Position numbers and translations under genes: made by a program | Shown here: piece after piece, positions 2,274-31,549 of the stretch | How positions within the stretch are numbered: the stretch's first letter is position 1 | How the letters are laid out: each line of letters starts with the position of its first letter | Assembly (NCBI GenBank): GCA_021734255.1 | Contig: JAIPJM010000003.1 | Location: 61,517-125,516, forward strand | Length of the DNA stretch: 64,000 nt | Source: Fidelibacterota bacterium | Lineage (GTDB): Bacteria > Fidelibacterota > UBA8477 > JABMPR01 | Direction of reading: 5' to 3' | Notes under the pieces: model-generated | What the model was told of the DNA's origin: nothing | Database searches by the model: none | The model's input: the letters and a program-made list of their open reading frames with translations, nothing else

Positions 2274-3372
2274 TTCGCGACCTTTTCAGCCAATGAAAGG
2301 TAGGTGGTCAGTTTTCCGCCAAAAATATGGATCAATTTGCTCTCACCCTTTTGATGGACATCCAGCTTATACTCCCTGCTCACATCTGACATATTTCCTT
2401 TTTTTCGAACCAGGGGCCGAACACCAATGTAAATATCCCTGACATCCTCACGCTGGAATTGGTGATCCGTTTTCAGATAAACATTCACCTGGTCCAACAG
2501 ATATTGGATATCTGCTTCCGCAGCCTCCACCTCATCCATCTCACAATTTTCCTCGCGCTCTGTTGTCCCCAGGATCGTCTGATCATTTTCAGGTTCCGGA
2601 ATGATAAAGAAGATTCGCTTTTCCCTGGTCTGCATGAACATGAGGTTGGGAACCATAACGCCATCGAAGATCAGGTGGATACCACTCACTTTCCGGATCT
2701 GATACCTGGCTGGGAAATGATATGCTTCGTTCACCTCATCCATCCAGGGACCGGTTGCATTGATGAGCAGGGGAGCCTGAAATTCTCCTGCAGCAGAATG
2801 CACAACAAAACCAGATCGATCCCAATCTATTGATTCGATATCGTCATGAACGATGATCGTCCCCCCAAATTCCTGAAAATCATCTGCAACCCGGCGGGTC
2901 AACTCCCGATCGTGGGTTTTTGCATCCACATAGGAGAGGACTGAGCGCAAGCCATTCTCTGAAAAAGCCGGGAATCGCTCCAAAAAGGCTTCCATGCTTT
3001 CCTTCCGTGATCTTCCAGCTGACCTGGAGCCTGAGAGGATATCATACATCCACAAACCAATACGGATCATCCAACCGGGACGGGGGCTGCTTTTATAGAT
3101 GGGAAGTATGAATCTTTCGTAGTGCACCAGGTCGGGATACTTCTCCACCAGGCGTTGCCGATCATGGAGAGCCTCATAGACCAGGTGGATCTGAGCGGTT
3201 TCCAGATAGCGGAGACCACCATGAATGAGTCGTGAAGATTTGGAGGACGTTCCGCTCCCTACGCCATTTTTGTCCAGCAGTAGTACCTGTTTGCCTTGGC
3301 GGGCAAGATTCTCTGCCACACCACAGCCATTGATACCGGCGCCAAGTACGATGACGTCATAGGATTGCATAG
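2258..3372 (-). CDS. FAD-dependent glycerol-3-phosphate dehydrogenase-like oxidoreductase (GlpA/GlpD family, short form)
   Basis: N-terminal Rossmann motif SYDVIVLGAGINGCGVAENLARQG and GlpD-like motifs (SSKSSRLIHGGLRYLE). The start is moved to MQSYD, because the longer ORF (to 3439) would read through the MITE-like repeat. Confidence 0.75.
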
Positions 3373-3405
3373 TTAAAGATAACCCAAATAAACACTCCAG
3401 AGAAT

Positions 3406-3646
3406 TGTCATTCTGAGTTTTATAACTGGGAAATGTCATCCTGAATCCTTCGACTAAGCTCAGGATAAACGCAGGATATTGAACCTGATTTCGAAGTAAG
3501 CCCTACACGTCTTCGCGATCCCGACAGGCATGTCGGGAGAAGCGATCTCCACTTGATCCCAATTGCCAAGATTATGTATGATTCAGCATCTTAAATTCTG
3601 AGATTGTCCGCCTACGCTTTGTCCTTCGACAGGCTCAGGATGACAG
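3406..3646. repeat. MITE-like repeat copy B (composite, about 240 bp) with internal direct repeat ccttcgacNNNgctcaggat and terminal inverted repeats tgtcatyctga / tcaggatgaca
   Basis: Alignable to copy A (tgatttcgaagtaagccctacacgtcttcgcgatccc + hairpin cccgacaggcatgtcggg + aattgccaagatta). Sits in the 5' region of the glpD-like gene. Confidence 0.5.
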
Positions 3647-3703: not shown

Positions 3704-5107
3704 CTATTTGAACAGAGGCCACCACAGGAGTGCCAGGAGCAGTAGTGATCCAATGGACATGATAGCCATCTTCCAGCCCGCTCGCAGGAAGTCAGGTGCC
3801 CTGACCAACCCGCTGGAATAAATAATGGTACAGGCAGGTGCGGCTACGGCTGTAAAATATCCAAAGGCTGAAGAAATGACGGAAGCCAGACCCAGAAGGA
3901 TGGGATCTCCACCTAAATTCAGTACGATGGGACCGACAACGGCAACGGTTGCTGAACTGCTCAGCAAATTTGAGAACACGCCGCTTAAGCCCACTGAGAC
4001 CACGGCCCGCAGTGCGTCTATATTGGGAATGATCCCACTCAACAGATTCACACTCCCCTCGGCCAGCCAGGCTGCGCCTCCTGTGTTTTTCATCTGAACA
4101 CCAATGGAGATGGTCGCTCCAAAGAGCAGAATTACTCCCCAGTTCACATTCTGCCGAATGTCCTCCCACGAGACCAGATCAAACGCGATGAACAGAAAAA
4201 CCCCCATGAGCGCTATGGTTCCGATCCCATACCTTTCGCTCAGGGTTATCCAACTGGTGAGGATGCCCAGAAAAAGCAGCATGGAAAATATCTCTTTCCT
4301 GGAGATCTTCCCGGCGCGGGCAACATTCACGGAGAGTTTACGAACGGCTGTGTCTAATATTTTTAATTCAGGCGGGAAGGTCTTCAGAATAATGAGGATG
4401 GTGATCGGTATCTCGATCAAAACCATGGGATATACCATCTTCATCCACTCCAGGTAACTCATTGTCCCAGACCCGAATTCTGCCCAATAATTCAGCATGA
4501 TAACATTACGGCCACCACCACTGGGAGTACCAATGGAACCAATGGTGGCGCCATAGGCGATGGAAAACAGCAGAGCCGCAACAAGGTTTGTGTCTGCCTT
4601 GCCCTTTTTATTGGTAAAACGAATGAGTGTGAGCGCTACGGGAAGCATCATGGCTGTGACCATGTGGGGTCCAACAAAACTGGATAAAAGTGCTGAGATG
4701 GCCGTAAATCCTGCGGCAATTCGCCAGGTCCGATTACCGGTGAGACGAATGATCCCCAGCGCGAGGCGCTTATCTAATCCCTGGCTGATAATGGCCACAG
4801 CCAACATGAGAGATCCCATGATAAAGAAGACCGCATCATTCATAAAGTAAGCGCCGACTTCATTGGGTGTGCTCCCACCGATAATTACCTGCCAGAACAG
4901 TAGTTGCAGGGCGATGGCTGGTAGCGGAATGGGTTCTTTCAGGATAAGGATCAGCGTCATCAGGATGATGATCAGGATGTGGTACCCAGCATCGCTCAAG
5001 CCTTCAGGAGCTGGGACGAATAGGTAGAGGATCCCTCCCAAAGCGAATGCGACCAGAAGCCAACGCTTCTGTTGGATCCAAAAAAGCGTATTCGTTGATA
5101 TGTGCAA
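3704..5107 (-). CDS. IT-superfamily anion permease (SLC13/DASS-like; ArsB/NhaD/CitMHS superfamily), paralog 1
   Basis: 467 aa, multi-TM throughout. About 65% identical to paralog 2 at 6038-7438, with shared blocks FMNDAVFFIMGSLMLAVAI, SQGLDKRLALGII, GTPSGGGRNVIM, SSSATVAVVGPIVL. Confidence 0.7.
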   Translation of the reverse strand: MHISTNTLFWIQQKRWLLVAFALGGILYLFVPAPEGLSDAGYHILIIILMTLILILKEPIPLPAIALQLLFWQVIIGGSTPNEVGAYFMNDAVFFIMGSLMLAVAIISQGLDKRLALGIIRLTGNRTWRIAAGFTAISALLSSFVGPHMVTAMMLPVALTLIRFTNKKGKADTNLVAALLFSIAYGATIGSIGTPSGGGRNVIMLNYWAEFGSGTMSYLEWMKMVYPMVLIEIPITILIILKTFPPELKILDTAVRKLSVNVARAGKISRKEIFSMLLFLGILTSWITLSERYGIGTIALMGVFLFIAFDLVSWEDIRQNVNWGVILLFGATISIGVQMKNTGGAAWLAEGSVNLLSGIIPNIDALRAVVSVGLSGVFSNLLSSSATVAVVGPIVLNLGGDPILLGLASVISSAFGYFTAVAAPACTIIYSSGLVRAPDFLRAGWKMAIMSIGSLLLLALLWWPLFK

Positions 5108-5120
5108 AGTAGGGCGCTTC

Positions 5121-6056
5121 TTAGCGGACGATCAGAATCGGGACATCCGTTTGCTTTAAGGTCTGAATGGGCTTACTTCCAAAAAGAAATTGTTTAAGCG
5201 GATTTAAGGTAGAGGCACCCATAATGACAATGTGATTATCACCGGCGAATTCTACGAAGGTTCGGACCGGGTCACCTGTGAGAAAAAATTGCTCCACATC
5301 AATTCCCCTGGAATCAAAGTAGGCTTTGGCCATGTCCGCAGCGCCCTGGTAACCAGCGCCAAACCGGCTGGTCTTGGAAACGGTCAGGGTTCTCACCGGC
5401 CATCCCAATTTTTCGGCGATCAGAGCTCCCCATTCAACAGATTTTGCTGTGGCTGTGGAATCGTCAACCAGCAGAAGGAGTTTATATTTTTTCCGGGGAT
5501 TGAATTTTTGCAAAACAAAAATTGAGCCTGGCAGGTATTGGATAAGGGAGTGAGCCAGATTCCGTTTGTTTTGACTCCCACCAATGATAGCAAGATCATA
5601 TTTTTCCAATTGCATCTCTTTACGCAACTCACCGACCAGTTCTCCTTCGCGCAAAACGAGCTCAATTTTCTTCCCTTCAACATCTGGCATGAAAACCCGG
5701 ATCCTGCCATCCTCTTCATAGACGTGATCTGGGTTGAACTGGATCTTCGCCAAAGCTTCGTTCTCGGGATTCAATTTCTTCAACTCCTTGAGTGCCCATT
5801 GCAACACTTCAAGACCAGGATGAATGATATTCCAGTCTGTCAGATTCTGGCGCGTCAGATTGACTGAGCTTCCATGAAACTCACTGGCTTTCTTGCCGAC
5901 GTAGGCTACACCCATGCTGGCATCAAATACAGAGGCAATGAGTGACCCAAATGTAAGCGTCGGTTTGGAGTACTTCTCACTGCTGACTGCCGTTAGAAAC
6001 TTGAGTGGTTTGGTGTCGATCTTTTCTCGTTTTTTCGTCATAATAGTGGCCACCAT
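5121..6056 (-). CDS. Universal stress protein, tandem UspA domains. Likely true start MTKKREK at 6041 with ATGA overlap onto the upstream permease stop.
   Basis: Two Usp-like halves (ILVDDSTATAKSVEWGA...; DVPILIVR C-terminus). Located between the two permease paralogs. Confidence 0.75.
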   Translation of the reverse strand: MVATIMTKKREKIDTKPLKFLTAVSSEKYSKPTLTFGSLIASVFDASMGVAYVGKKASEFHGSSVNLTRQNLTDWNIIHPGLEVLQWALKELKKLNPENEALAKIQFNPDHVYEEDGRIRVFMPDVEGKKIELVLREGELVGELRKEMQLEKYDLAIIGGSQNKRNLAHSLIQYLPGSIFVLQKFNPRKKYKLLLLVDDSTATAKSVEWGALIAEKLGWPVRTLTVSKTSRFGAGYQGAADMAKAYFDSRGIDVEQFFLTGDPVRTFVEFAGDNHIVIMGASTLNPLKQFLFGSKPIQTLKQTDVPILIVR

Positions 6057-23755: not shown

Positions 23756-24055
23756 ATGAATAGAAATAGAGCATTGATTCTGGTTCTTGTCATCCTTCTA
23801 ACATTGGGATTTTTGAGCGCTTGCATGCCCAACCCCGCAATGGCGGTCCATACACACCCCGCAGGTTTCTTCAAGGGTGTCTGGCATGGCTGGATCGCAC
23901 CCTTTTCACTGATCGTTGGTTTTTTTAATGACAATATCCGTATATATGAACCGAACAATACGGGCTGGTGGTATGATTTCGGTTTTTATATGGCCATCAT
24001 TAGTGGGTTTGGTGGGCTGTCGCTCGTCAGACGGAAGCAGGACGATCGACTCTGA
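23756..24055 (+). CDS. Small hypothetical membrane/lipoprotein (99 aa)
   Basis: Signal/TM with Cys (LGFLSAC), then a second TM. No recognisable family. Confidence 0.35.
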   Translation: MNRNRALILVLVILLTLGFLSACMPNPAMAVHTHPAGFFKGVWHGWIAPFSLIVGFFNDNIRIYEPNNTGWWYDFGFYMAIISGFGGLSLVRRKQDDRL

Positions 24056-24060
24056 TCGCT

Positions 24061-24981
24061 ATGAAGATCACTGTTAAAGAGCTGACGACTGTCGGACCAA
24101 CGATCCATTCCACCTTTGTGGATCTACCTTTTATCAAGCATGTCGGTGGATCAGGAAGCGTACCAAAACCCGTGCTTGCCTATCAATCACCTTCCTGCAT
24201 CAAGATCGTGGGAAATATTCATGCTTTTCTAAAAGCGCAGGAACAGGGATTACCCACGGTTCCGGTCTATCTCATCCAGGAATCAGAAAGCACTCTGGAA
24301 TTGCTCCAGACCATAATTGAATATTATGATCCCCTAACCCTTATGGATAAAGCGCTCATCACCCGCTCCGCCATCGAACTTGGTGTACCCCGTCCCACAC
24401 TAGCTGAAAATATCTTCCCCTTCATGGACCTACCGCCCAGGGAAAAACTTATCGACCAGGTTTTGTTTCTCCTCGATATGCCCAGCGATCTTCAACACTT
24501 CATCGTAGATAAGGACCTGAGCCTGAAACGAGCTCTCATCTTCCAGAAAGCTGAAGGGAACCTGAACTGGGTATCCCGCTTCATTTCCAACCTGAAGGTG
24601 GGGATCAACATGACAGCGGAGATCATCCAGAATATCTGGGAGATGGCAAAACAGGACGATGTGGACTTCAAAACCAAAGCCCAGGAAATGGGGCTCTGGG
24701 AAATGGCTGACACTCACTATGAGGATAACAGGCAGGTACTATTAGACATTCGGAAACGAATATCTGAGGCTCGTTTCCCAATTTTGACCAAAGCTGGCGA
24801 AGATGTTCAGGCGCTTCTGAAAGCAGCCGATCTTCCCAGTTCTGTCAAGGTCAGCTGGGATCCCCAATTTGAACGACAAGGTCTGGATATCTCATTTCAC
24901 AGTAAGGATGAAGCAGAATTGGATCAGACCCTGAGCAAGTTATCCTCACCATCATTTAAAGAACTGTTTAAGAAGGTCTGA
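24061..24981 (+). CDS. Hypothetical protein with degenerate ParB/Srx-like N-terminal domain
   Basis: IKIVGNIHAFLKAQEQGLPTVPVYLI resembles the ParB GERRxRA...IPV block, but the arginines are missing. The rest has no match I recognise. Confidence 0.35.
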   Translation: MKITVKELTTVGPTIHSTFVDLPFIKHVGGSGSVPKPVLAYQSPSCIKIVGNIHAFLKAQEQGLPTVPVYLIQESESTLELLQTIIEYYDPLTLMDKALITRSAIELGVPRPTLAENIFPFMDLPPREKLIDQVLFLLDMPSDLQHFIVDKDLSLKRALIFQKAEGNLNWVSRFISNLKVGINMTAEIIQNIWEMAKQDDVDFKTKAQEMGLWEMADTHYEDNRQVLLDIRKRISEARFPILTKAGEDVQALLKAADLPSSVKVSWDPQFERQGLDISFHSKDEAELDQTLSKLSSPSFKELFKKV

Positions 24982-24985
24982 GCCT

Positions 24986-26176
24986 GTGAAAGAGCCAAAG
25001 ATCACCCGGATCGTTGTTGATGAGAAGGTCGCCAACCAGGAGTTGGTAGCTCGTTACCAGAAAAATAATCCCGATGCCACGGTGACCCGGATCGAACTCA
25101 CTGAGGAGTATAAAGTATCCATGTTCCGTCAGGAACCGACACCGGCTAAACGGGAGATCCTGCTCACAGAAAAACAGGGACATACTGTAAAACAATGCCC
25201 AGGGACAGATCGGACCTATCGCTGTTGTAATTATCATGTGATCAACCAGACAAGCAATTGTCCCATTGACTGCACCTATTGTATCCTTCAGTTTTACTTA
25301 AATAATCCCGTAACAACTGTCTATGCGAACTCTGAGAAATTGCTGACTGAGGTAAAAGAGAAGATCGCCACCCAACCCAGGCGCTTTTTCCGTATCGGTA
25401 CCGGTGAGTTATCCGATAGTTTGGCATTTGACTCCTCATCCGATTTCTCCCGGGACATTGTGACGTATTTCGCTGATCTGGATAATGTGCTTCTGGAGTT
25501 GAAGACCAAATCCAATCGGATCGAGAACTTATTGGACCTGGATCACAAGGGACACACCGTGGTCTCCTGGTCAGTGAATCCACAGGTCATTATTGACGCC
25601 GAGGAACATAAAGCTGCTTCACTGCAGGAACGGCTCGAAGCCATGGCCAAAGTCCAGGCAGCCGGTTATAAGATCGGTTTCCATTTTGACCCACTCCTTT
25701 TTCACGAGGGTTGGGAACAGAGTTACCCAGATCTGATCAAACAACTTTTCCAGGTGGTCGACCCGACAAACGTTACCTGGGTCTCCATCGGGTCTCTCCG
25801 CTTTCCCCCGGAGATGAAAGACAAGGTTTTGGAAAAATTCCCCAAATCAAAGATCATGTTCGCTGAACTGATCCGCGGAATGGATGGCAAGATGCGCTAT
25901 CCCAAACCGCTGCGATTGGACATGTATCGAACGGTGTATAAAGCATTACAGACATATGGCGGGGAGGATCTATTCATCTATTTCTGTATGGAATCTGCCG
26001 AAATTTGGGAACGGGTCATGGGCTGGAGCCCTGAAGATAATGAGCACCTGGACTATCTATTTGCTGAAAGTCTGCATCGTCGCTTCCCTGGTCTCATGCA
26101 AGAGGCTCCTGATCGACAAGTCTATGATGATGGTATTCCGCTTCACCAGGATAAGGCAGACATTCCCGGGTTTTAA
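24986..26176 (+). CDS. SPL-family radical SAM protein (spore-photoproduct-lyase-like)
   Basis: CPIDCTYC (Cx3Cx2C) followed by ILQFYLNNPVTTVYAN and RIGTGELSDSLAFD, as in the SplB family. Confidence 0.7.
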   Translation: MKEPKITRIVVDEKVANQELVARYQKNNPDATVTRIELTEEYKVSMFRQEPTPAKREILLTEKQGHTVKQCPGTDRTYRCCNYHVINQTSNCPIDCTYCILQFYLNNPVTTVYANSEKLLTEVKEKIATQPRRFFRIGTGELSDSLAFDSSSDFSRDIVTYFADLDNVLLELKTKSNRIENLLDLDHKGHTVVSWSVNPQVIIDAEEHKAASLQERLEAMAKVQAAGYKIGFHFDPLLFHEGWEQSYPDLIKQLFQVVDPTNVTWVSIGSLRFPPEMKDKVLEKFPKSKIMFAELIRGMDGKMRYPKPLRLDMYRTVYKALQTYGGEDLFIYFCMESAEIWERVMGWSPEDNEHLDYLFAESLHRRFPGLMQEAPDRQVYDDGIPLHQDKADIPGF

Positions 26177-26188
26177 GCACTCGTTGTA

Positions 26189-26692
26189 ATGATTCGCAAA
26201 GTAATAAAAGACGACTTTGGTCAACTCGTTGAAATTTATAACCAAGCCATACTCAAGGGGCATCAAACTGCCCATTTGAACCCGGTAACCATTGATTCGA
26301 GGAAGCAATGGTTTCTTGACCACGCTGCGAAAAGGCAACTGCTTCTCGCTTATTTAGAAGGAAAAACTATCCTTGGGTACCTTAGCTTAAGCGCCTATCG
26401 AAACGGGCGTGAAGCATTACAGGGGACAAAAGAAGTGAGCATCTACATTAGACAGGATTCCCAAAATCAGGGCATTGCATCAGCACTTTTTAAGCATACA
26501 CTAGCTCTGTGTCCCTCAATGGGAATTGAAGCCTTGATCGCTATCATCCTGGCCAGCAATCAGAGCAGTATCTCCTTCTTTAAAAAGCATCAGTTTGAAG
26601 AGTGGGGCCGCTTACTCGATATAGCAAAAGTCGCTGGCCATAAAATCGATCATGTCTATCTGGGGAGACAGGTTTCCCTTGATAAGCGTTAA
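26189..26692 (+). CDS. GNAT N-acetyltransferase, phosphinothricin/MSO acetyltransferase (PAT)-like
   Basis: Acetyl-CoA binding motif QNQGIASALFKH. Overall PAT/YncA-like. Confidence 0.75.
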   Translation: MIRKVIKDDFGQLVEIYNQAILKGHQTAHLNPVTIDSRKQWFLDHAAKRQLLLAYLEGKTILGYLSLSAYRNGREALQGTKEVSIYIRQDSQNQGIASALFKHTLALCPSMGIEALIAIILASNQSSISFFKKHQFEEWGRLLDIAKVAGHKIDHVYLGRQVSLDKR

Positions 26693-26708
26693 AAACAGAG
26701 CCACCAAG

Positions 26709-27266
26709 ATGAAATCATTTATAAGCATATCCCTCCAGACTGAACGGCTCACGCTGAGGCCGGTAAAGGAGAGTGATGCCGAGGATCTATACGCCATTTT
26801 CTCGGATCCAACGGTCATGCGCTATGGGAGCTCAACACCCTGGACTTCCATCGATCAGGCCCTAAAAAAAATAAGTTTGGATCGGGAAGCGCTAAAAAAA
26901 AGTGAATCGCTTATTCTCGGCGTGATCCGTAATGATGATAATAAATTGATCGGCACTTGCAGCCTGTTTGACATAAACTGGCAATGTCGCCGGGCCGAGA
27001 TCGGCTATATTCTGAGTTCAAAAGTCTGGGGTCAGGGCTACATGAATGAAGCGCTTCATACACTGCTGGACTTCGGGTTCGATGAATTGAACTTCCACCG
27101 GGTCGAAGCCGACATCGACCCCAACAATAAAGCTTCAGAAAGGATCCTCCAGAAACTGGGCTTCACGGAAGAGGGCTTACTCAGGGAACGGTGGATCGTG
27201 GATGGGGAGATCACTGACACAGGGTTCTATGGTTTATTACAAAGAGAGTGGCGAAGCAAGATTTGA
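26709..27266 (+). CDS. GNAT family N-acetyltransferase (RimJ/RimL-like)
   Basis: ERLTLRPVKESDAEDLY start typical of the RimL family. GQGYMNEAL motif. Confidence 0.7.
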   Translation: MKSFISISLQTERLTLRPVKESDAEDLYAIFSDPTVMRYGSSTPWTSIDQALKKISLDREALKKSESLILGVIRNDDNKLIGTCSLFDINWQCRRAEIGYILSSKVWGQGYMNEALHTLLDFGFDELNFHRVEADIDPNNKASERILQKLGFTEEGLLRERWIVDGEITDTGFYGLLQREWRSKI

Positions 27267-27449
27267 GCCTACCTTCGCCCAACTATACAGAGGTATAATA
27301 ATATCTACCAGCCAGAGGTAGTGACATCTTTTGCTGGGTCTAGCTTCACATGCAGGAGTAGCCGTACGTGTACGATTAGGCCGTTGCTTTGTACTTATAG
27401 CATCAGTAAAACATGGGGTATGAAATAAATCGGGGGTCAAGGAGTAGTT

Positions 27450-27953
27450 ATGAATCTTCAGACTATTGCATCAATTGCAGAAATATTTGGATTTGTAGCC
27501 GTTATGGCAGCTATTATTTTTGGTTGGATCCAGATCCAACAATTCAAGCGTCAGAGAAGAGATCAGGCAGCCATAGAGCTAGTGCGAAACTTCCAGGATA
27601 TTGAGTTTACACGGGGTTTTCGCTTGATCCATTCCTTGCCGGAGGACATTTCAGCCGATGAGTTCAAAAGCAAGGGAACTGAATACATAGATGCTGCCTA
27701 TTCCCTCAGTATGAAATACGAGACCATGGGGGTCCTGGTGCACCGTGAGGTAGTACCCATCGATGCAGTAGAGGATCTGATCGGTGGTGTTGGAATTACA
27801 CTTTGGAAACGGCTTAGTCCCTGGATTCATGCTGTTCGCAAAGAACAATCAAATGAGCATATCCTCGAATGGTATCAATGGCTGATTGAGAGGATACTGG
27901 AGCGCGGGAATAAGAACCAAGAACCTGCGTATAAAAGATTCAGAATATGGTAG
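27450..27953 (+). CDS. Hypothetical protein with N-terminal TM anchor (167 aa)
   Basis: Single N-terminal TM helix. No recognisable domain. Confidence 0.35.
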   Translation: MNLQTIASIAEIFGFVAVMAAIIFGWIQIQQFKRQRRDQAAIELVRNFQDIEFTRGFRLIHSLPEDISADEFKSKGTEYIDAAYSLSMKYETMGVLVHREVVPIDAVEDLIGGVGITLWKRLSPWIHAVRKEQSNEHILEWYQWLIERILERGNKNQEPAYKRFRIW

Positions 27954-27971
27954 CTGAAGGAGTAGTCAGAT

Positions 27972-28733
27972 ATGTTTAAGCATGCCATTGTTCGAACACC
28001 ATGCAAAAACATGGTGGCCGGTTTAACAGGGGCTGGTCTGGGGAAACCAGATCATTCTCTCGCTATGATTCAGCATCAAGCATATATCAAAGTACTTGAA
28101 TCTTGCAATGTCGAGGTCACGATTCTTCCTCCAGATGAGAAATATCCTGATTCCACTTTTGTTGAGGACGTTGCTCTCCTGACACCGCATTGTGCTATTA
28201 TCACCCGCCCGGGTGCACCCTCCCGACAGGGTGAAACAGAAGGGATCCAGAGAGCCATTACTCCCTTTTATTCGGCTGTGGAGGTGATAAGGGAACCAGG
28301 TACCATCGATGCCGGTGATATCATGATGGTTGGTGAACACTACTACATTGGCCTATCTGAGCGTACAAACCCTGAGGGCGCCAGGCAAATGATCCAGATC
28401 CTGGAGCAATATGGAATGAGCGGATCTACTGTTGATCTGAAGCATGTCCTCCACCTGAAAACGGGTGCTGCCTATCTGGAAAACAATAATCTGGTTGTAT
28501 GTGGTGAATTCACCGAAAAGGCTGAATTTGAAAAATTTAACAGGATAGTTATCACTGAAGCAAATGCCTATTCAGCCAATTGCATTTGGGTGAACGACCG
28601 CGTGGTCATCCCATCCGGGTTTCCCAGAACAAAGGAGCTGATCAGCAGCGCCGGCTACCCTGTTATTGAAACCGATATGTCTGAATTTCAAAAATTGGAT
28701 GGTGGGCTCAGCTGTCTATCTCTCAGGTTTTAA
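27972..28733 (+). CDS. Dimethylarginine dimethylaminohydrolase (DDAH)/amidinotransferase superfamily protein
   Basis: MFKHAIVRTPCKNM...TPHCAIITRPGAPSRQGE...LDGGLSCLSLRF (C-terminal catalytic Cys) typical of DDAH. Confidence 0.75.
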   Translation: MFKHAIVRTPCKNMVAGLTGAGLGKPDHSLAMIQHQAYIKVLESCNVEVTILPPDEKYPDSTFVEDVALLTPHCAIITRPGAPSRQGETEGIQRAITPFYSAVEVIREPGTIDAGDIMMVGEHYYIGLSERTNPEGARQMIQILEQYGMSGSTVDLKHVLHLKTGAAYLENNNLVVCGEFTEKAEFEKFNRIVITEANAYSANCIWVNDRVVIPSGFPRTKELISSAGYPVIETDMSEFQKLDGGLSCLSLRF

Positions 28734-28761
28734 CGCTTGACCACACGATGAAGGAATTATT

Positions 28762-29493
28762 ATGAATATATTGATCGTCGGTGCTACTGGCGCCACTGGA
28801 AAACGACTGGTTGAGCAATTGCTGGAGCGGGGGCAGTCCGTAAAAGCTTTTGTTCGCGAGGGTAGTGAACTACCGGAAGGGGTCAGAGGGCATAAGGATC
28901 TAACCATCATTAACGGCTCAGTTCTGGATCTTCCGGATATGGAGCTGGTCACCCATGTAAAGGATTGTGATGCTGTGGTTTCCTGTCTCGGACACAACAT
29001 CTCATTCAAGGGACTGTTCCTGCCTCCCCGTAAACTGGTCAGAGATTCAATTCGCAAGTTATATCAAGCTGTTCAGCTCCATGAGTACCCGATGCCGGTT
29101 AAATTTCTGCTGATGAATACCACAGGGAACCGAAATCGTGATCTGAACGAAAAAATATCGCTCAAACATCGTATTGTCGTGGCTCTCCTGCGTATTCTCC
29201 TCCCGCCCCAGGCTGACAATGAGGCAGCTGCTAACTTCCTTCGAGTACACGTGGGCCAGACCGATGACAAAGTAGAGTGGCTTGCTGTGCGTCCAGATGG
29301 GTTGATCGATGAAGAGGCGGTAACAGGATATGATGTTCACCCATCCCCCGTTCGTGATCCCATTTTTGATGCTGGTCAAACCAGCCGTATCAATGTGGCC
29401 CATTTCATGGCCGAATTGATCCTTAACACGGAACTATGGAACAAGTGGAAAGGTCAGATGCCTGTCATCTATAACAGAGATCATGGCGAATAG
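28762..29493 (+). CDS. NAD(P)H-binding (NmrA/atypical SDR) oxidoreductase
   Basis: MNILIVGATGATGKRLVEQLLERG Rossmann motif. Confidence 0.7.
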   Translation: MNILIVGATGATGKRLVEQLLERGQSVKAFVREGSELPEGVRGHKDLTIINGSVLDLPDMELVTHVKDCDAVVSCLGHNISFKGLFLPPRKLVRDSIRKLYQAVQLHEYPMPVKFLLMNTTGNRNRDLNEKISLKHRIVVALLRILLPPQADNEAAANFLRVHVGQTDDKVEWLAVRPDGLIDEEAVTGYDVHPSPVRDPIFDAGQTSRINVAHFMAELILNTELWNKWKGQMPVIYNRDHGE

Positions 29494-29704
29494 TGCATTT
29501 ACCTACCAGCAAACCAAATCCGGGTTGGTTCTTATCAGTGCCAATAATCGCGTGGTGACAACACTCAAAGGCAAAGAAGCTCTCAAATTTATACAAAAGA
29601 TCGACCCCCTCTCCCTGGGTGAACAACAATTACTCATGGCCAAAGTCACCGGACAATTCAAATTTGGCAATGAAAGACGAGCCAAGGGATCAGATCAAAG
29701 ATGA
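29483..29704 (+). CDS. Small hypothetical protein (73 aa), overlapping both neighbours
   Basis: ORF only. Overlaps consistent with operon packing. Confidence 0.3.
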   Translation: MANSAFTYQQTKSGLVLISANNRVVTTLKGKEALKFIQKIDPLSLGEQQLLMAKVTGQFKFGNERRAKGSDQR

Positions 29705-30237
29705 AAATGATTGCCTACATGGGGGTAAGTCTGGATGGCTACATCGCTGACAAAGCGGGTGGTGTTGATTGGCTCAATGAGCTACCCATCCCGGAGGGTG
29801 ATGATCTGGGGTTCTCAACATTCATGGCTGGTATCGATGCCCTGCTCATGGGGTCGAACTCTTTCCGCACCATCCTCCAGATCGGTGACTGGTATTACGA
29901 TAAGCCTGTGTATGTTGCCAGTAACAGCATCCAGTTGATCCCTGAGGGTTATCAGGAGCGCATTAAACTCATTCAAGGGGATATTCACGAGTTACTTGCC
30001 CAGCTCGAGGGAGATGGCCATCAAAATATTTATGTTGATGGCGGGAAGATCGTCCAGGCCTGTATCCAGGCAGATCTGCTGGATGAGCTCATTATTACTC
30101 ATATTCCTGTTTTACTGGGTGATGGCATATCACTTTTTGGCAAGTTGGAACGGTCCAAGACTCTGGAACACAGACAGACGGAGGTTCTGGGATATGGCCT
30201 GGTGAAATCTCACTATCTCATTCGGAATAATCGATGA
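29701..30237 (+). CDS. Dihydrofolate reductase family (RibD C-terminal domain) protein
   Basis: MKMIAYMGVSLDGYIADKAGGVDWL... typical of the RibD_C/DHFR-like family. Confidence 0.7.
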   Translation: MKMIAYMGVSLDGYIADKAGGVDWLNELPIPEGDDLGFSTFMAGIDALLMGSNSFRTILQIGDWYYDKPVYVASNSIQLIPEGYQERIKLIQGDIHELLAQLEGDGHQNIYVDGGKIVQACIQADLLDELIITHIPVLLGDGISLFGKLERSKTLEHRQTEVLGYGLVKSHYLIRNNR

Positions 30238-30743
30238 GTCTATTAATTACTCCTGTTCATGCGAAGACTGATGTACAACGCTTGGCTGGTCTGGCCAGTG
30301 AGATCTGGTGGCAGCATTTTCCCCCGATCATTGGTAAAGCTCAGGTCGAATACATGGTTAAAAAGTTTCAAAGTGAAACAGCCATACTGGAGCAATTAGA
30401 GCAGGGCTATGACTATTTTCTGGCTGAGATTGATGGCCTCGCTGTTGGATATACCGGCCTGCTACCTGATGCAGAGGCAAAAAAGCTGATGATCAGCAAG
30501 CTTTATGTGAAAGAGAATGCCCGTGATAACGGTGTTGGTCAGACGCTCCTGGATTTCATTGAAAAGAAATGTAACACTGAAGGGCTTGATACACTCTGGC
30601 TCACAGTGAATCGCGGAAACACGGGACCGATCAATTGGTATCTGAAACGTGGGTTTAGGATCACAAAAGAAGTTGACATGGACATCGGTGAAGGCTTTAT
30701 CATGGATGACTATATCATGGAAAAGGACTTACACCGGGACTGA
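30234..30743 (+). CDS. GNAT family N-acetyltransferase
   Basis: RDNGVGQTLLDFIEKK acetyl-CoA motif. Confidence 0.7.
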   Translation: MSLLITPVHAKTDVQRLAGLASEIWWQHFPPIIGKAQVEYMVKKFQSETAILEQLEQGYDYFLAEIDGLAVGYTGLLPDAEAKKLMISKLYVKENARDNGVGQTLLDFIEKKCNTEGLDTLWLTVNRGNTGPINWYLKRGFRITKEVDMDIGEGFIMDDYIMEKDLHRD

Positions 30744-31549
30744 TGACGTCGATCACGGGAAATATTTTCAACATTAAACGATACGCTATTCATGATGGAC
30801 CCAACATCCGGACCACGGTCTTCTTTAAGGGTTGCTCCCTCTCCTGCTGGTGGTGTCACAACCCGGAAGGGAAATCCCCAGAGGTCCGGTTCAAGTCAAA
30901 CCCTCGGCAAACCTTTGAGTCCAGCGATGAAAAATTGGTTCCTTTGGGTGGCTGGACAAGTACAGTCTCTGAGATCATGGGGGAAATACGCAAGGATCTG
31001 CCCTTCTTCCAGGAAAGCGGTGGTGGCGTCACTTTCTCTGGTGGTGATCCCCTCTACCAGCCCGAGTTTCTTCAGGCGCTCCTCAAGGCTTGTGGCCAGG
31101 AGAACATCCATCGAAGCGTTGATACCTCAGCCCATGCCCCTGCAGAGATCATTCGTTCAGTTGCAGGAGAAACTGAGCTCTGGTTATTGGACCTTAAACA
31201 CATGGATAATACCCTGCATCTTAAGCATACGGGTTTAGAAAACGGCTTGATCCTTCAAAATATCAAACTGCTGGATGCATTGGGCGCGGAAATTCGTATC
31301 CGCATCCCTTTGATCCCGGGAGTGAATGCTGATGAACAGAATCTGACTGCGTCAGCAAAATTCATCTGTGATCTGGAACGTAAACATCCCATTGATATCT
31401 TACCCTATCATGACACGGCTGCTTCAAAATATCGAACCCTGGGGTTAGATTATCGCCAGGTGCAAGCAAGCGGACCAGAATCATTGAATCCAGAACAGCT
31501 CATAGAATTGATGGGCAGCTATGGACTCTCAGCCCAAATAGGTGGTTAA
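30743..31549 (+). CDS. Glycyl-radical enzyme activating protein (PFL-AE family radical SAM)
   Basis: FFKGCSLSCWWCHNPE (CxxxCxxC) plus GGDPLYQPEF. Confidence 0.9.
   Translation: MTSITGNIFNIKRYAIHDGPNIRTTVFFKGCSLSCWWCHNPEGKSPEVRFKSNPRQTFESSDEKLVPLGGWTSTVSEIMGEIRKDLPFFQESGGGVTFSGGDPLYQPEFLQALLKACGQENIHRSVDTSAHAPAEIIRSVAGETELWLLDLKHMDNTLHLKHTGLENGLILQNIKLLDALGAEIRIRIPLIPGVNADEQNLTASAKFICDLERKHPIDILPYHDTAASKYRTLGLDYRQVQASGPESLNPEQLIELMGSYGLSAQIGG

Follow-up and report, generated by a model that had tools for sequence, protein, structure and literature searches.

Spore photoproduct lyase (SPL) is, to our knowledge, the only characterised member of its family of radical S-adenosylmethionine (SAM) enzymes. 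What a protein of this family might do in a bacterium that does not sporulate is the question raised by a 64,000-nucleotide stretch of DNA from a Fidelibacterota bacterium (NCBI GenBank assembly GCA_021734255.1, contig JAIPJM010000003.1, positions 61,517 to 125,516 of the forward strand), referred to here, at its full length, as the window. In the window, a gene encoding an SPL-family radical SAM protein (hereafter rSAM) is found immediately downstream of a gene for a 306-aa protein with a predicted ParB fold (hereafter X), and an original prediction, made from the sequence alone, had seen in this pair a nucleic-acid-directed system reminiscent of DNA modification, repair or defence modules. 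The comparative analysis reported here leads to a reading, held at a probability of about 0.4, in which the pair constitutes the conserved 3' core of an enzymatic pathway that is chromosomal, consumes SAM and modifies its target by radical chemistry, with X acting as the non-catalytic partner of rSAM.

Conservation of the gene pair and its wider operon

A scan of species-representative genomes with an rSAM alignment returned at least 596 matching stretches encoding relatives, and pairing was counted on the 65 best loci with 1 kb or more of sequence 5' of rSAM. In 44 of them, rSAM is immediately preceded by a co-oriented X gene, the two mostly separated by -4 to +11 nt, in loci labelled Marinimicrobia, Elusimicrobia, KSB1, Bdellovibrio, Thermodesulfovibrio and Bradymonadales. 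Given this frequency, the differing flanks of the pair and its spread across several phyla, the pairing is beyond chance; the original prediction had staked its case on conservation of the pair in other genomes, and conserved it proves to be. Divergent X homologues (44–60% identical) all have rSAM as the next gene, again amid varied flanks. The two partners are unequally conserved, with a mean identity to the window proteins of 58% for rSAM versus 31% for X, and rSAM is the better conserved in 53 of 53 loci. In the Marinimicrobia, synteny around the pair is stable and the pair looks vertically inherited. No orthologues of X or rSAM were detected in 72,556 plasmids and 50,697 phage records; the pair is chromosomal and absent from mobile elements.

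Clustering of neighbouring genes places the pair at the 3' end of a longer operon. Approximately 17 loci in the rSAM-centred set have genes for a PNP_UDP_1-family protein and a GT2 glycosyltransferase ahead of the pair, yielding the order MTAN/HpnG-like nucleosidase, GT2, X and rSAM. In a metagenome scan centred on GT2, whose orthologues are 40–69% identical across lineages, X was directly downstream in 17 of 63 GT2 loci, and rSAM followed X in 11 of the 12 with room for it. The nucleosidase occurs in a short form (~204–220 aa) whose best NCBIfam matches, HpnG (65.6 bits against a cut-off of 187) and the 5'-methylthioadenosine/S-adenosylhomocysteine (MTA/SAH) nucleosidase, are both under cut-off, and whose sequence matches in the PDB are MTA/SAH and aminodeoxyfutalosine nucleosidases; GT2, for its part, reaches 32.9 bits on HpnB, where the cut-off is 379. 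No clear transmembrane segment was detected in any of the four operon proteins, in what is a weak test.

Departures from this order also occur. In four loci lacking X, GT2 and a longer MTAN-like protein of ~280 aa (L130, 3240–4073; L147, 5855–6709; L160, 5806–6660; L144, 3664–4482) are encoded upstream of rSAM, with overlapping or abutting genes in L130, L147 and L160, and with a TauE-family gene between the MTAN-like gene and rSAM in L144. This long form is MTAN-like in its N-terminal part, carries ~90 aa of C-terminal extension, and occupies the place of X between GT2 and rSAM. Its profile matches only MTA/SAH nucleosidases in the PDB, the L144 protein has no match in Pfam, and a comparison of its C-terminal extension with the C-terminus of X, also a weak test, revealed no similarity. 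Furthermore, three unrelated X lineages with canonical ParB motifs feature GT2 directly upstream and no rSAM nearby (L013, 4014–6020; L015, 4148–5960; L098, 2733–4566), the GT2 and X genes overlapping in L015 and L098 and lying ~100 bp apart in L013; the GT2–ParB link is wider than the ParB–rSAM link.

In a rough neighbour-joining tree of rSAM rooted on SplB, linkage to GT2 and the nucleosidase is seen in the deepest and in many other branches. According to this tree, the four-gene operon is probably ancestral, while the window clade, which keeps X only, and the dnaE-linked clade described below would be derived, the former through loss of the GT2/nucleosidase adjacency. The wider operon, which the original prediction had missed, makes the pair part of a unit with a GT2 and an MTAN/HpnG-like nucleosidase. 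A pathway of several modification or biosynthetic steps, apparently of a housekeeping kind, thereby becomes a better inference than repair or defence. No published description of the X–rSAM pair or of the operon was found in the literature, nor any paper combining SPL with ParB or with the Marinimicrobia.

The radical SAM protein and its ParB-fold partner

The assignment of rSAM to the SPL family, already made in the original prediction, is upheld by its score on the Pfam SPL family (PF20903; 115.5 bits against a cut-off of 27) and by its predicted fold. With an AlphaFold2 (AF2) model of rSAM (predicted local distance difference test, pLDDT, 82) as query, Foldseek returned SPL as the only close fold (E ~1e-20, template modelling score, TM, 0.65–0.80 over ~350 columns; next fold, 7e-5), and the sequence matches of rSAM in the PDB are to spore photoproduct lyase only (E ~1e-22 with the single sequence, ~1e-30 with a profile). 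On the SplB equivalog model of NCBIfam (TIGR04070), however, rSAM attains 132.6 bits and an orthologue from a four-gene operon 130.1 bits, the cut-off of 400 not being reached. The NCBIfam matches of rSAM are confined to SPL-type, KamA and mobile-pair models, with no HpnH model among them. Its likeness to SplB (TIGR04070; PDB 4FHC and related structures) comprises the PF20903 family, the fold, the CxxxCxxC motif and the SAM-contacting residues (Lys175, Ser196 and Arg272/274); in the predicted model, a short hairpin also occurs near the position of the SPL flipping hairpin.

The residues of rSAM were compared through an alignment with Bacillus SplB and through the columns of 82 distinct family members (Table 1), using the roles established for the SAM-contacting, hydrogen-donating and lesion-binding residues of SPL and for its flipping hairpin (PMC3467042). 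K175, S196 and R272, all of them invariant, correspond in the alignment to the SAM-binding Lys174, Ser195 and Arg273 of SPL (G. thermodenitrificans numbering). Four other SPL residues are replaced or deleted. The hydrogen-atom donor Cys141 has become Glu, Tyr99 (I100 in rSAM) is replaced by Ile (76 of 82 sequences), Phe (4) or Val (2), the lesion-binding Arg193 (194 in B. subtilis numbering) is Ser or Ala in 82 of 82, and Glu268 (269 in B. subtilis numbering) falls within a 2-residue deletion of the rSAM subfamily. Among the SPL side chains that bind dihydrothymine (Arg193, Glu268 and Tyr339), the first is hence replaced and the second deleted, Tyr339 not being alignable.

The rSAM subfamily is further set apart from SplB by four extra cysteines, of which C71, C81 and C334 are present in 82 of 82 distinct sequences and C80 in 81; together they form a candidate second metal or Fe–S site, or a candidate hydrogen-donor site. 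A GTGELxDS motif, His233 and Asp235 are also invariant. The predicted hairpin is located where SPL has its DNA-flipping hairpin (Arg304/Tyr305), the two not being alignable by sequence. The window protein is acidic (isoelectric point, pI, 5.6; net charge -10), whereas SplB is basic (pI 8.1). The hosts of the subfamily are non-sporulating, and where SplB has SplA for a partner, the subfamily has a ParB-fold protein, a GT2 and a nucleosidase. As judged from these alignments, rSAM is not a spore photoproduct lyase, but belongs to a separate orthologous group within the SPL family. The candidacy of rSAM as a true SP lyase was rejected on the missed equivalog cut-off and on the fate of the donor Cys, Tyr99, Arg193 and Glu268, and the same four replacements or deletions make DNA repair of the spore type unlikely; DNA repair in general had been among the directions suggested by the original prediction.

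The sequence of X has no match in Pfam (none at E ≤ 0.1), NCBIfam or the PDB, and its kinship with ParB is seen in its predicted structure, in which a ParB N-domain fold is followed by a ParB-type helix-turn-helix (HTH) domain, and in its relatives. A profile search of 1.84 billion representatives recovered 1738 relatives of X, every one of 300–345 aa, and 19 of 34 diverse, distant family members match Pfam ParB_N (PF02195); a further profile search with a divergent X alignment added few ParB-annotated proteins and no cultured organism. The predicted structure, these matches and the motif alignments bear out the earlier proposal of a ParB/Srx-like fold that has lost its arginine motifs. At the box II position, where canonical relatives show GFRR/GxxR, the window protein reads GNIHAF (GNIHAFLKA), and at the box III position, (D/E)NxxRxxNxxEKA in canonical relatives, it reads EYYDPLTLMDKA (EYYDPLTL). 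The GxxRxxA and ENxxR motifs of ParB CTPases are therefore not present in the window protein, whereas canonical GFRR and DNxxR are found in L012, L067, L015 and others. Many X relatives have kept the arginine motifs, which were lost independently in the window clade and in several other clades.

The best-conserved part of X is found in its C-terminal domain (Table 1), where R238, P240 and E271 are (near-)invariant even in members 16–36% identical to the window protein; its HTH region is acidic (pI 4.7). Since the ParB motifs have decayed in many lineages and R238, P240 and E271 have been kept, X, with its NTPase-like N-domain, would appear to be a full-length ParB derivative in which the nucleotide-binding site is dispensable for the conserved role of the family. 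Many members resemble the ParB, KorB and Noc CTPases (PF02195 plus ParB HTH) in keeping GFRR and (D/E)NxxRxxNxxEKA and in matching PF02195. The window protein, in contrast, has lost both nucleotide-binding motifs, and the X family differs from these CTPases in being encoded in an enzyme operon without parA/parS context and in possessing C-terminal RxP and WDxxxE motifs of its own. In L012, where GFRR is canonical, X had been called as 232 aa, the full open reading frame (ORF) encoding 317 aa (2659–3612), and an assembly gap (a run of N, 3864–4471) lies between X and rSAM.

Gene order in the window and in related genomes

X and rSAM adjoin each other in the same orientation, as originally described, with a spacer of 4 nt (GCCT) in place of the 5 bp first given (Table 1). 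X ends in ...AAGAAGGTCTGA, and the AAGAAGG Shine–Dalgarno-like run falls inside this end, an arrangement that suggests translational coupling. The N-terminus of rSAM, MKEPKI, agrees with those of its homologues. The window derives from a Candidatus Marinimicrobia genome, X and rSAM each being 100% identical to a protein of an NCBI metagenome-assembled genome. Between 22.9 and 27.6 kb, 8 promoter-like sites were found versus 6.5 in the shuffled expectation, as well as 9 terminator-like sites versus 4.3 expected (~2x), none of the latter having a strong stem and none of those on the + strand being intergenic.

Table 1. Features of the X–rSAM locus, with positions in the window
Feature	Position	Strand	Remarks
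Asparaginase N-terminal-domain-only protein, 170 aa	23233–23745		Co-oriented with X
99-aa lipoprotein-like ORF	23756–24055		Co-oriented with X
X, 306-aa ParB-fold protein	24061–24981	+	ParB homologue by predicted structure
Domains of X			ParB_N-like, ~aa 1–76; helical ParB/KorB-type HTH region, ~aa 77–217; C-terminal alpha/beta, ~aa 223–306
Degenerate ParB box II, aa 47–60, IKIVGNIHAFLKAQ	24199–24240	+	Alignments; columns over 85 family members
Degenerate ParB box III, aa 84–99, TIIEYYDPLTLMDKAL	24310–24357	+	Alignment columns
R238-F-P240 and W266-D-P-x-F-E271	24772–24873	+	Best-conserved part of X; invariant-column list
X/rSAM junction	24971–24985	+	AAGAAGG Shine–Dalgarno-like run within 3' end of X, TGA stop, 4-nt spacer, rSAM GTG; read from sequence
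rSAM, SPL-family radical SAM protein, 396 aa, GTG start	24986–26176	+	PF20903 match
Subfamily Cys motif C71-PGT-x3-Y-x-C80-C81	25196–25228	+	Absent from true SPL; in gap versus Bacillus SplB
Radical SAM cluster motif C92-x3-C96-x2-C99	25259–25282	+	Followed by I100, at the SPL relay Tyr99 position
E141	25406–25408	+	At SPL H-atom donor Cys141 (B. subtilis) / Cys140 (G. thermodenitrificans); Glu in 81/82
Predicted short beta-hairpin, aa 296–306	25871–25903	+	AF2 secondary structure; invariant G298, D300, K302, R304, Y305
C334	25985–25987	+	Fourth extra Cys of rSAM subfamily
Two GNAT acetyltransferases	26189–26692, 26652–27266		Co-oriented with X and rSAM

The limits first drawn around the pair require revision on both sides. 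Its start had been set at 23756, which takes in the 99-aa ORF; in relatives, this ORF and the asparaginase-domain gene remain together even where two genes part them from X (L002), and the ORF was ruled out as a module member. The two GNAT acetyltransferases reported downstream are real genes, but they are absent from beside the pair in all related loci examined and were likewise ruled out as members. They stand at the beginning of ~5 kb of additional same-strand genes 3' of rSAM (~26189–31549), encoding the two GNATs, a DUF4760 protein, an ADI/DDAH-like protein, an NAD-binding protein, a RibD_C protein, a third GNAT and a second radical SAM protein. In the close relatives L017 and L025, a TonB/ExbD/ExbB cluster lies almost directly 3' of rSAM, and the region looks like a variable spot. 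The second radical SAM protein (30743–31549; 268 aa) is small, matches PF04055 and Fer4_12, and contains CSLSCWWC, a motif of activase-like type; there is a 1-nt overlap between its start and the stop codon of the third GNAT gene (30234–30743), itself preceded by the RibD_C-domain gene (29701–30237), and the protein has no evident link with the X–rSAM pair.

Other genomic settings were observed in related lineages. In one Marinimicrobia clade without X, encompassing 13 loci, the start of rSAM abuts or overlaps the stop of replicative dnaE (DNA polymerase III alpha); loci with this linkage include L008, L037, L043, L045, L050, L052–L056 and L062, with rSAM at ~4000–5150 of each. A context of error-prone DnaE2 was ruled out, the upstream dnaE being replicative, with 1390 bits on NF004226, above its cut-off, and a score below cut-off on the error-prone model. 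A different clade has the pair in convergent orientation to ssb, near dnaA. Recurrent neighbours elsewhere are a NUDIX hydrolase, a HAD protein with a galactokinase, an SDR, a CoxG/SRPBCC protein, an aldo-keto reductase and glutamate racemase. Directly upstream of GT2 orthologues without X and rSAM, LytB (IspH) and a UbiA-family prenyltransferase are encoded as one fusion protein of 577 aa in L131, L155, L164, L165, L168, L170 (3001–4734), L173 and L176, with a Dus gene before the fusion in several of them.

Searches against defence and phage collections were largely negative. PADLOC yielded marginal matches only (rSAM, E 0.007; an X relative, on the N-terminal ParB-like stretch of MTase_II, E 2e-4), and the PHROGs matches were all of a generic ParB or GtrB-like kind. 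In related loci the pair has no linked gene for a nuclease, a methyltransferase or another effector, and squalene and hopene genes were not encountered in the loci either. In the search for SOS control upstream of 90 operons, GGA-N5-TCC was counted 9 times versus 3.8 expected, but the motif is too unspecific for use.

A proposed radical modification pathway and its alternatives

In the pathway proposed here, rSAM would use SAM as a consumed co-substrate, as suggested by the loss of the SPL hydrogen-return residues (Cys141 to Glu, Tyr99 to Ile) together with the linkage to an adenosine-type nucleosidase. The enzyme would either abstract a hydrogen atom and release 5'-deoxyadenosine, or add the 5'-deoxyadenosyl radical to its substrate in the manner of HpnH and MqnE. 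The nucleosidase would remove adenine, from the by-product or from the adenosylated product, and GT2 would then add a sugar. The most likely role for X is that of a targeting or scaffold subunit, translationally coupled to rSAM and non-catalytic in the window clade; the nucleotide site of X has decayed, its C-terminal motifs are conserved and enzyme genes flank it, all of which points to a partner subunit that would presumably form a complex with rSAM. The presence of a dedicated nucleosidase and a glycosyltransferase in the operon favours such a modification or biosynthetic pathway over the repair of a rare lesion.

Parts of this scheme have precedents. The closest one for a ParB-fold protein alongside a base-modifying enzyme is the DpdA–DpdB system of 7-deazaguanine DNA modification, in which the DNA base-exchange enzyme DpdA, itself homologous to a family of nucleic-acid enzymes, requires the ParB-fold ATPase DpdB (PMC10164549). 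DpdB, however, is active as an ATPase, carries a DGQQR motif and is encoded in a restriction-modification island, whereas the motif of X is degenerate in the window clade, its partner is a radical SAM protein and restriction genes are not linked to it. For the enzymes, HpnH, HpnG and HpnI of hopanoid side-chain synthesis offer an operon with a radical SAM protein, a PNP/MTAN-family enzyme and a GT2, in which radical SAM adenosylation is followed by the action of the PNP-type enzyme and of the GT2; MqnE, which also has an associated nucleosidase, shares the adenosyl-addition chemistry (PMC13459092). By analogy, the shared enzyme classes suggest 5'-deoxyadenosyl addition, adenine removal and glycosylation in the present operon, which nonetheless differs in that rSAM is of the SPL family, the nucleosidase and GT2 fall far under the HpnG and HpnB cut-offs, and a ParB-fold protein is present. 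The original prediction held that no function has been assigned to the SPL-family proteins of bacteria other than spore-formers, which is true in biochemical terms. A broader SplB/COG1533 group, however, has been documented as a member of the SOS regulon in the Verrucomicrobia, the Bacteroidetes and other phyla (PMC4951493, PMC8565304). Like rSAM, these SOS-regulated radical SAM proteins occur in non-spore-formers, carry SplB or DNA repair photolyase as annotation and have no biochemical function assigned. LexA control ties them to the DNA-damage response, whereas no known LexA box lies upstream of the present operons; ParB-like, GT2 or nucleosidase partners are not reported for them, and any orthology with the rSAM subfamily is putative.

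As to the target of the pathway, a nucleic-acid base, in DNA more than in RNA, is tentatively placed first. On the one hand, both proteins stem from DNA-acting families, rSAM is encoded beside dnaE, or near ssb and dnaA, in two clades, and ParB-fold proteins such as DpdB are established companions of DNA-modifying enzymes. On the other hand, a lipid or small molecule would suit the logic of a nucleosidase acting with a GT2, as well as the metabolic genes nearby, the acidity of the proteins and the lost SPL lesion contacts; it is considered nearly as likely a target, a protein or other target accounting for the remainder.

Several observations weigh against the proposed pathway or against its direction at nucleic acids. 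The GT2 and nucleosidase genes were not found within the 64-kb window, and no cultured organism carrying the operon was identified. The dnaE and ssb adjacencies are each limited to one clade, and the recurrent neighbours include metabolic genes (SDR, CoxG/SRPBCC, HAD with galactokinase, aldo-keto reductase and the LytB–UbiA fusion). No riboswitch was detected in 15 loci scanned for riboswitches and RNA leaders, which returned tRNAs only, and the known LexA boxes GAAC-N4-GTTC, CTGT-N8-ACAG, CTAA-N5-TTAG and TGTTC-N4-GAACA are not enriched upstream of 90 operons. The SPLs of clostridia use an alternative, upstream Cys as hydrogen donor, at the position of G. thermodenitrificans Ser76 (PMC3467042). 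The rSAM residue aligned to this Cys is Thr77, with C80–C81 3–4 residues off in a low-confidence alignment with a 6-residue insertion, and this proximity of C80–C81 to the clostridial donor leaves the loss of an SPL-like hydrogen-return path not fully proven. The acidity of rSAM and of the HTH region of X speaks weakly against direct DNA binding. Some ParB/KorB-family proteins are acidic as well.

The same evidence can be arranged differently. In a lipid or small-molecule glycoconjugate pathway following hopanoid side-chain logic, which we consider somewhat less likely than the favoured reading and the weightiest of the alternatives, rSAM would attach the 5'-deoxyadenosyl radical to an isoprenoid or an olefinic metabolite, adenine would be removed by the PNP/MTAN-like enzyme and GT2 would glycosylate the product. 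X would serve either as a regulator with a ParB/Srx fold or as an accessory resembling a small-molecule kinase, like SbnI in the staphyloferrin B operon. All three enzyme classes match HpnH/HpnG/HpnI (PMC13459092), HpnG is the best NCBIfam match of the nucleosidase, the SPL lesion contacts are lost, the window proteins are acidic, and the neighbours feature an SDR, the lipid-binding fold of CoxG/SRPBCC, a HAD protein with galactokinase and, by GT2 orthologues, the LytB(IspH)–UbiA fusion. Yet rSAM is no homologue of HpnH or MqnE, and its only close relative, in sequence and in fold, is a DNA enzyme; X keeps its ParB/KorB HTH region besides the Srx-like N-domain, and the loss of its nucleotide-binding motif in many operon-keeping lineages argues against a kinase role. 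The HpnG score, at about a third of its cut-off, and the lack of a clear transmembrane segment in the four proteins also count against this pathway. X might instead act solely as a transcriptional regulator of the downstream gene, in analogy but not homology to the SplA-domain transcriptional regulator annotated upstream of splB in Bacillus, and its ParB/KorB-type HTH fold would suit that function. This is a poor prospect, as X has enzyme genes on either side, in frames that overlap or abut its own, across phyla, its best-conserved residues are in the C-terminal domain and not in the HTH, and it is tightly linked to GT2 also where rSAM is absent.

Direct-reversal DNA repair, with an SP-lyase-like enzyme acting on another lesion, for instance in dark or anoxic habitats, and a ParB-like protein recruiting it to DNA, draws on the SPL fold and family, the ParB-fold partner, the dnaE and ssb neighbourhoods in two clades and the SOS regulation of the broader SplB/COG1533 group in several phyla (PMC4951493, PMC8565304). 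It appears improbable in view of the replacement or deletion of Cys141, Tyr99, Arg193 and Glu268 across 82 sequences, of NCBIfam matches restricted to SPL-type, KamA and mobile-pair models, of the lack of a known LexA box upstream and of the ancestral linkage to GT2 and an adenosine-type nucleosidase, which fits a high-flux SAM-consuming pathway. Lastly, an anti-phage defence or restriction-modification-like module assembled from ParB-like and radical SAM parts could invoke the ParB-fold DndB, SspE and DpdB and the radical SAM enzymes known from defence systems (PMC10853773, PMC10164549). The absence of a PADLOC system beyond marginal matches and of plasmid or phage orthologues, the stable synteny in the Marinimicrobia, the very high conservation of rSAM and the lack of a linked nuclease, methyltransferase or other effector render the defence module mentioned in the original prediction very improbable.

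A more specific version of the radical modification pathway favoured here, improbable in its full form, would make it an oxygen-independent pathway of nucleic-acid base hypermodification, with a chromosomal housekeeping role in many, mostly uncultured bacteria. A ParB-derived loader would place the SPL-like rSAM, with its extra four-Cys site, on DNA; a flipped-out pyrimidine would be functionalised by 5'-deoxyadenosyl addition or by oxidation of the thymine-methyl radical, and the MTAN-like nucleosidase and GT2 would turn the adduct into a sugar-bearing base. If true, bacteria would possess an anaerobic counterpart to the synthesis of base J or of glucosyl-hydroxymethylcytosine.

The analysis defines one large orthologous subfamily of SPL-like proteins, recognisable by a Glu at the donor-Cys position, by four additional Cys and by His233/Asp235; with its operon partners, what was an orphan annotation becomes a four-gene pathway that can be tested. 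The components derive from known superfamilies, and it is their combination, as pair and as operon, for which no published description was found. Should the target be DNA or RNA, the pathway would represent a new kind of anaerobic base modification; should it be a lipid or metabolite, it would provide a fourth example of chemistry with a 5'-deoxyadenosyl building block, from an unexpected enzyme family. Under either target, the names "DNA photolyase" and "spore photoproduct lyase" given to these genes are probably wrong.

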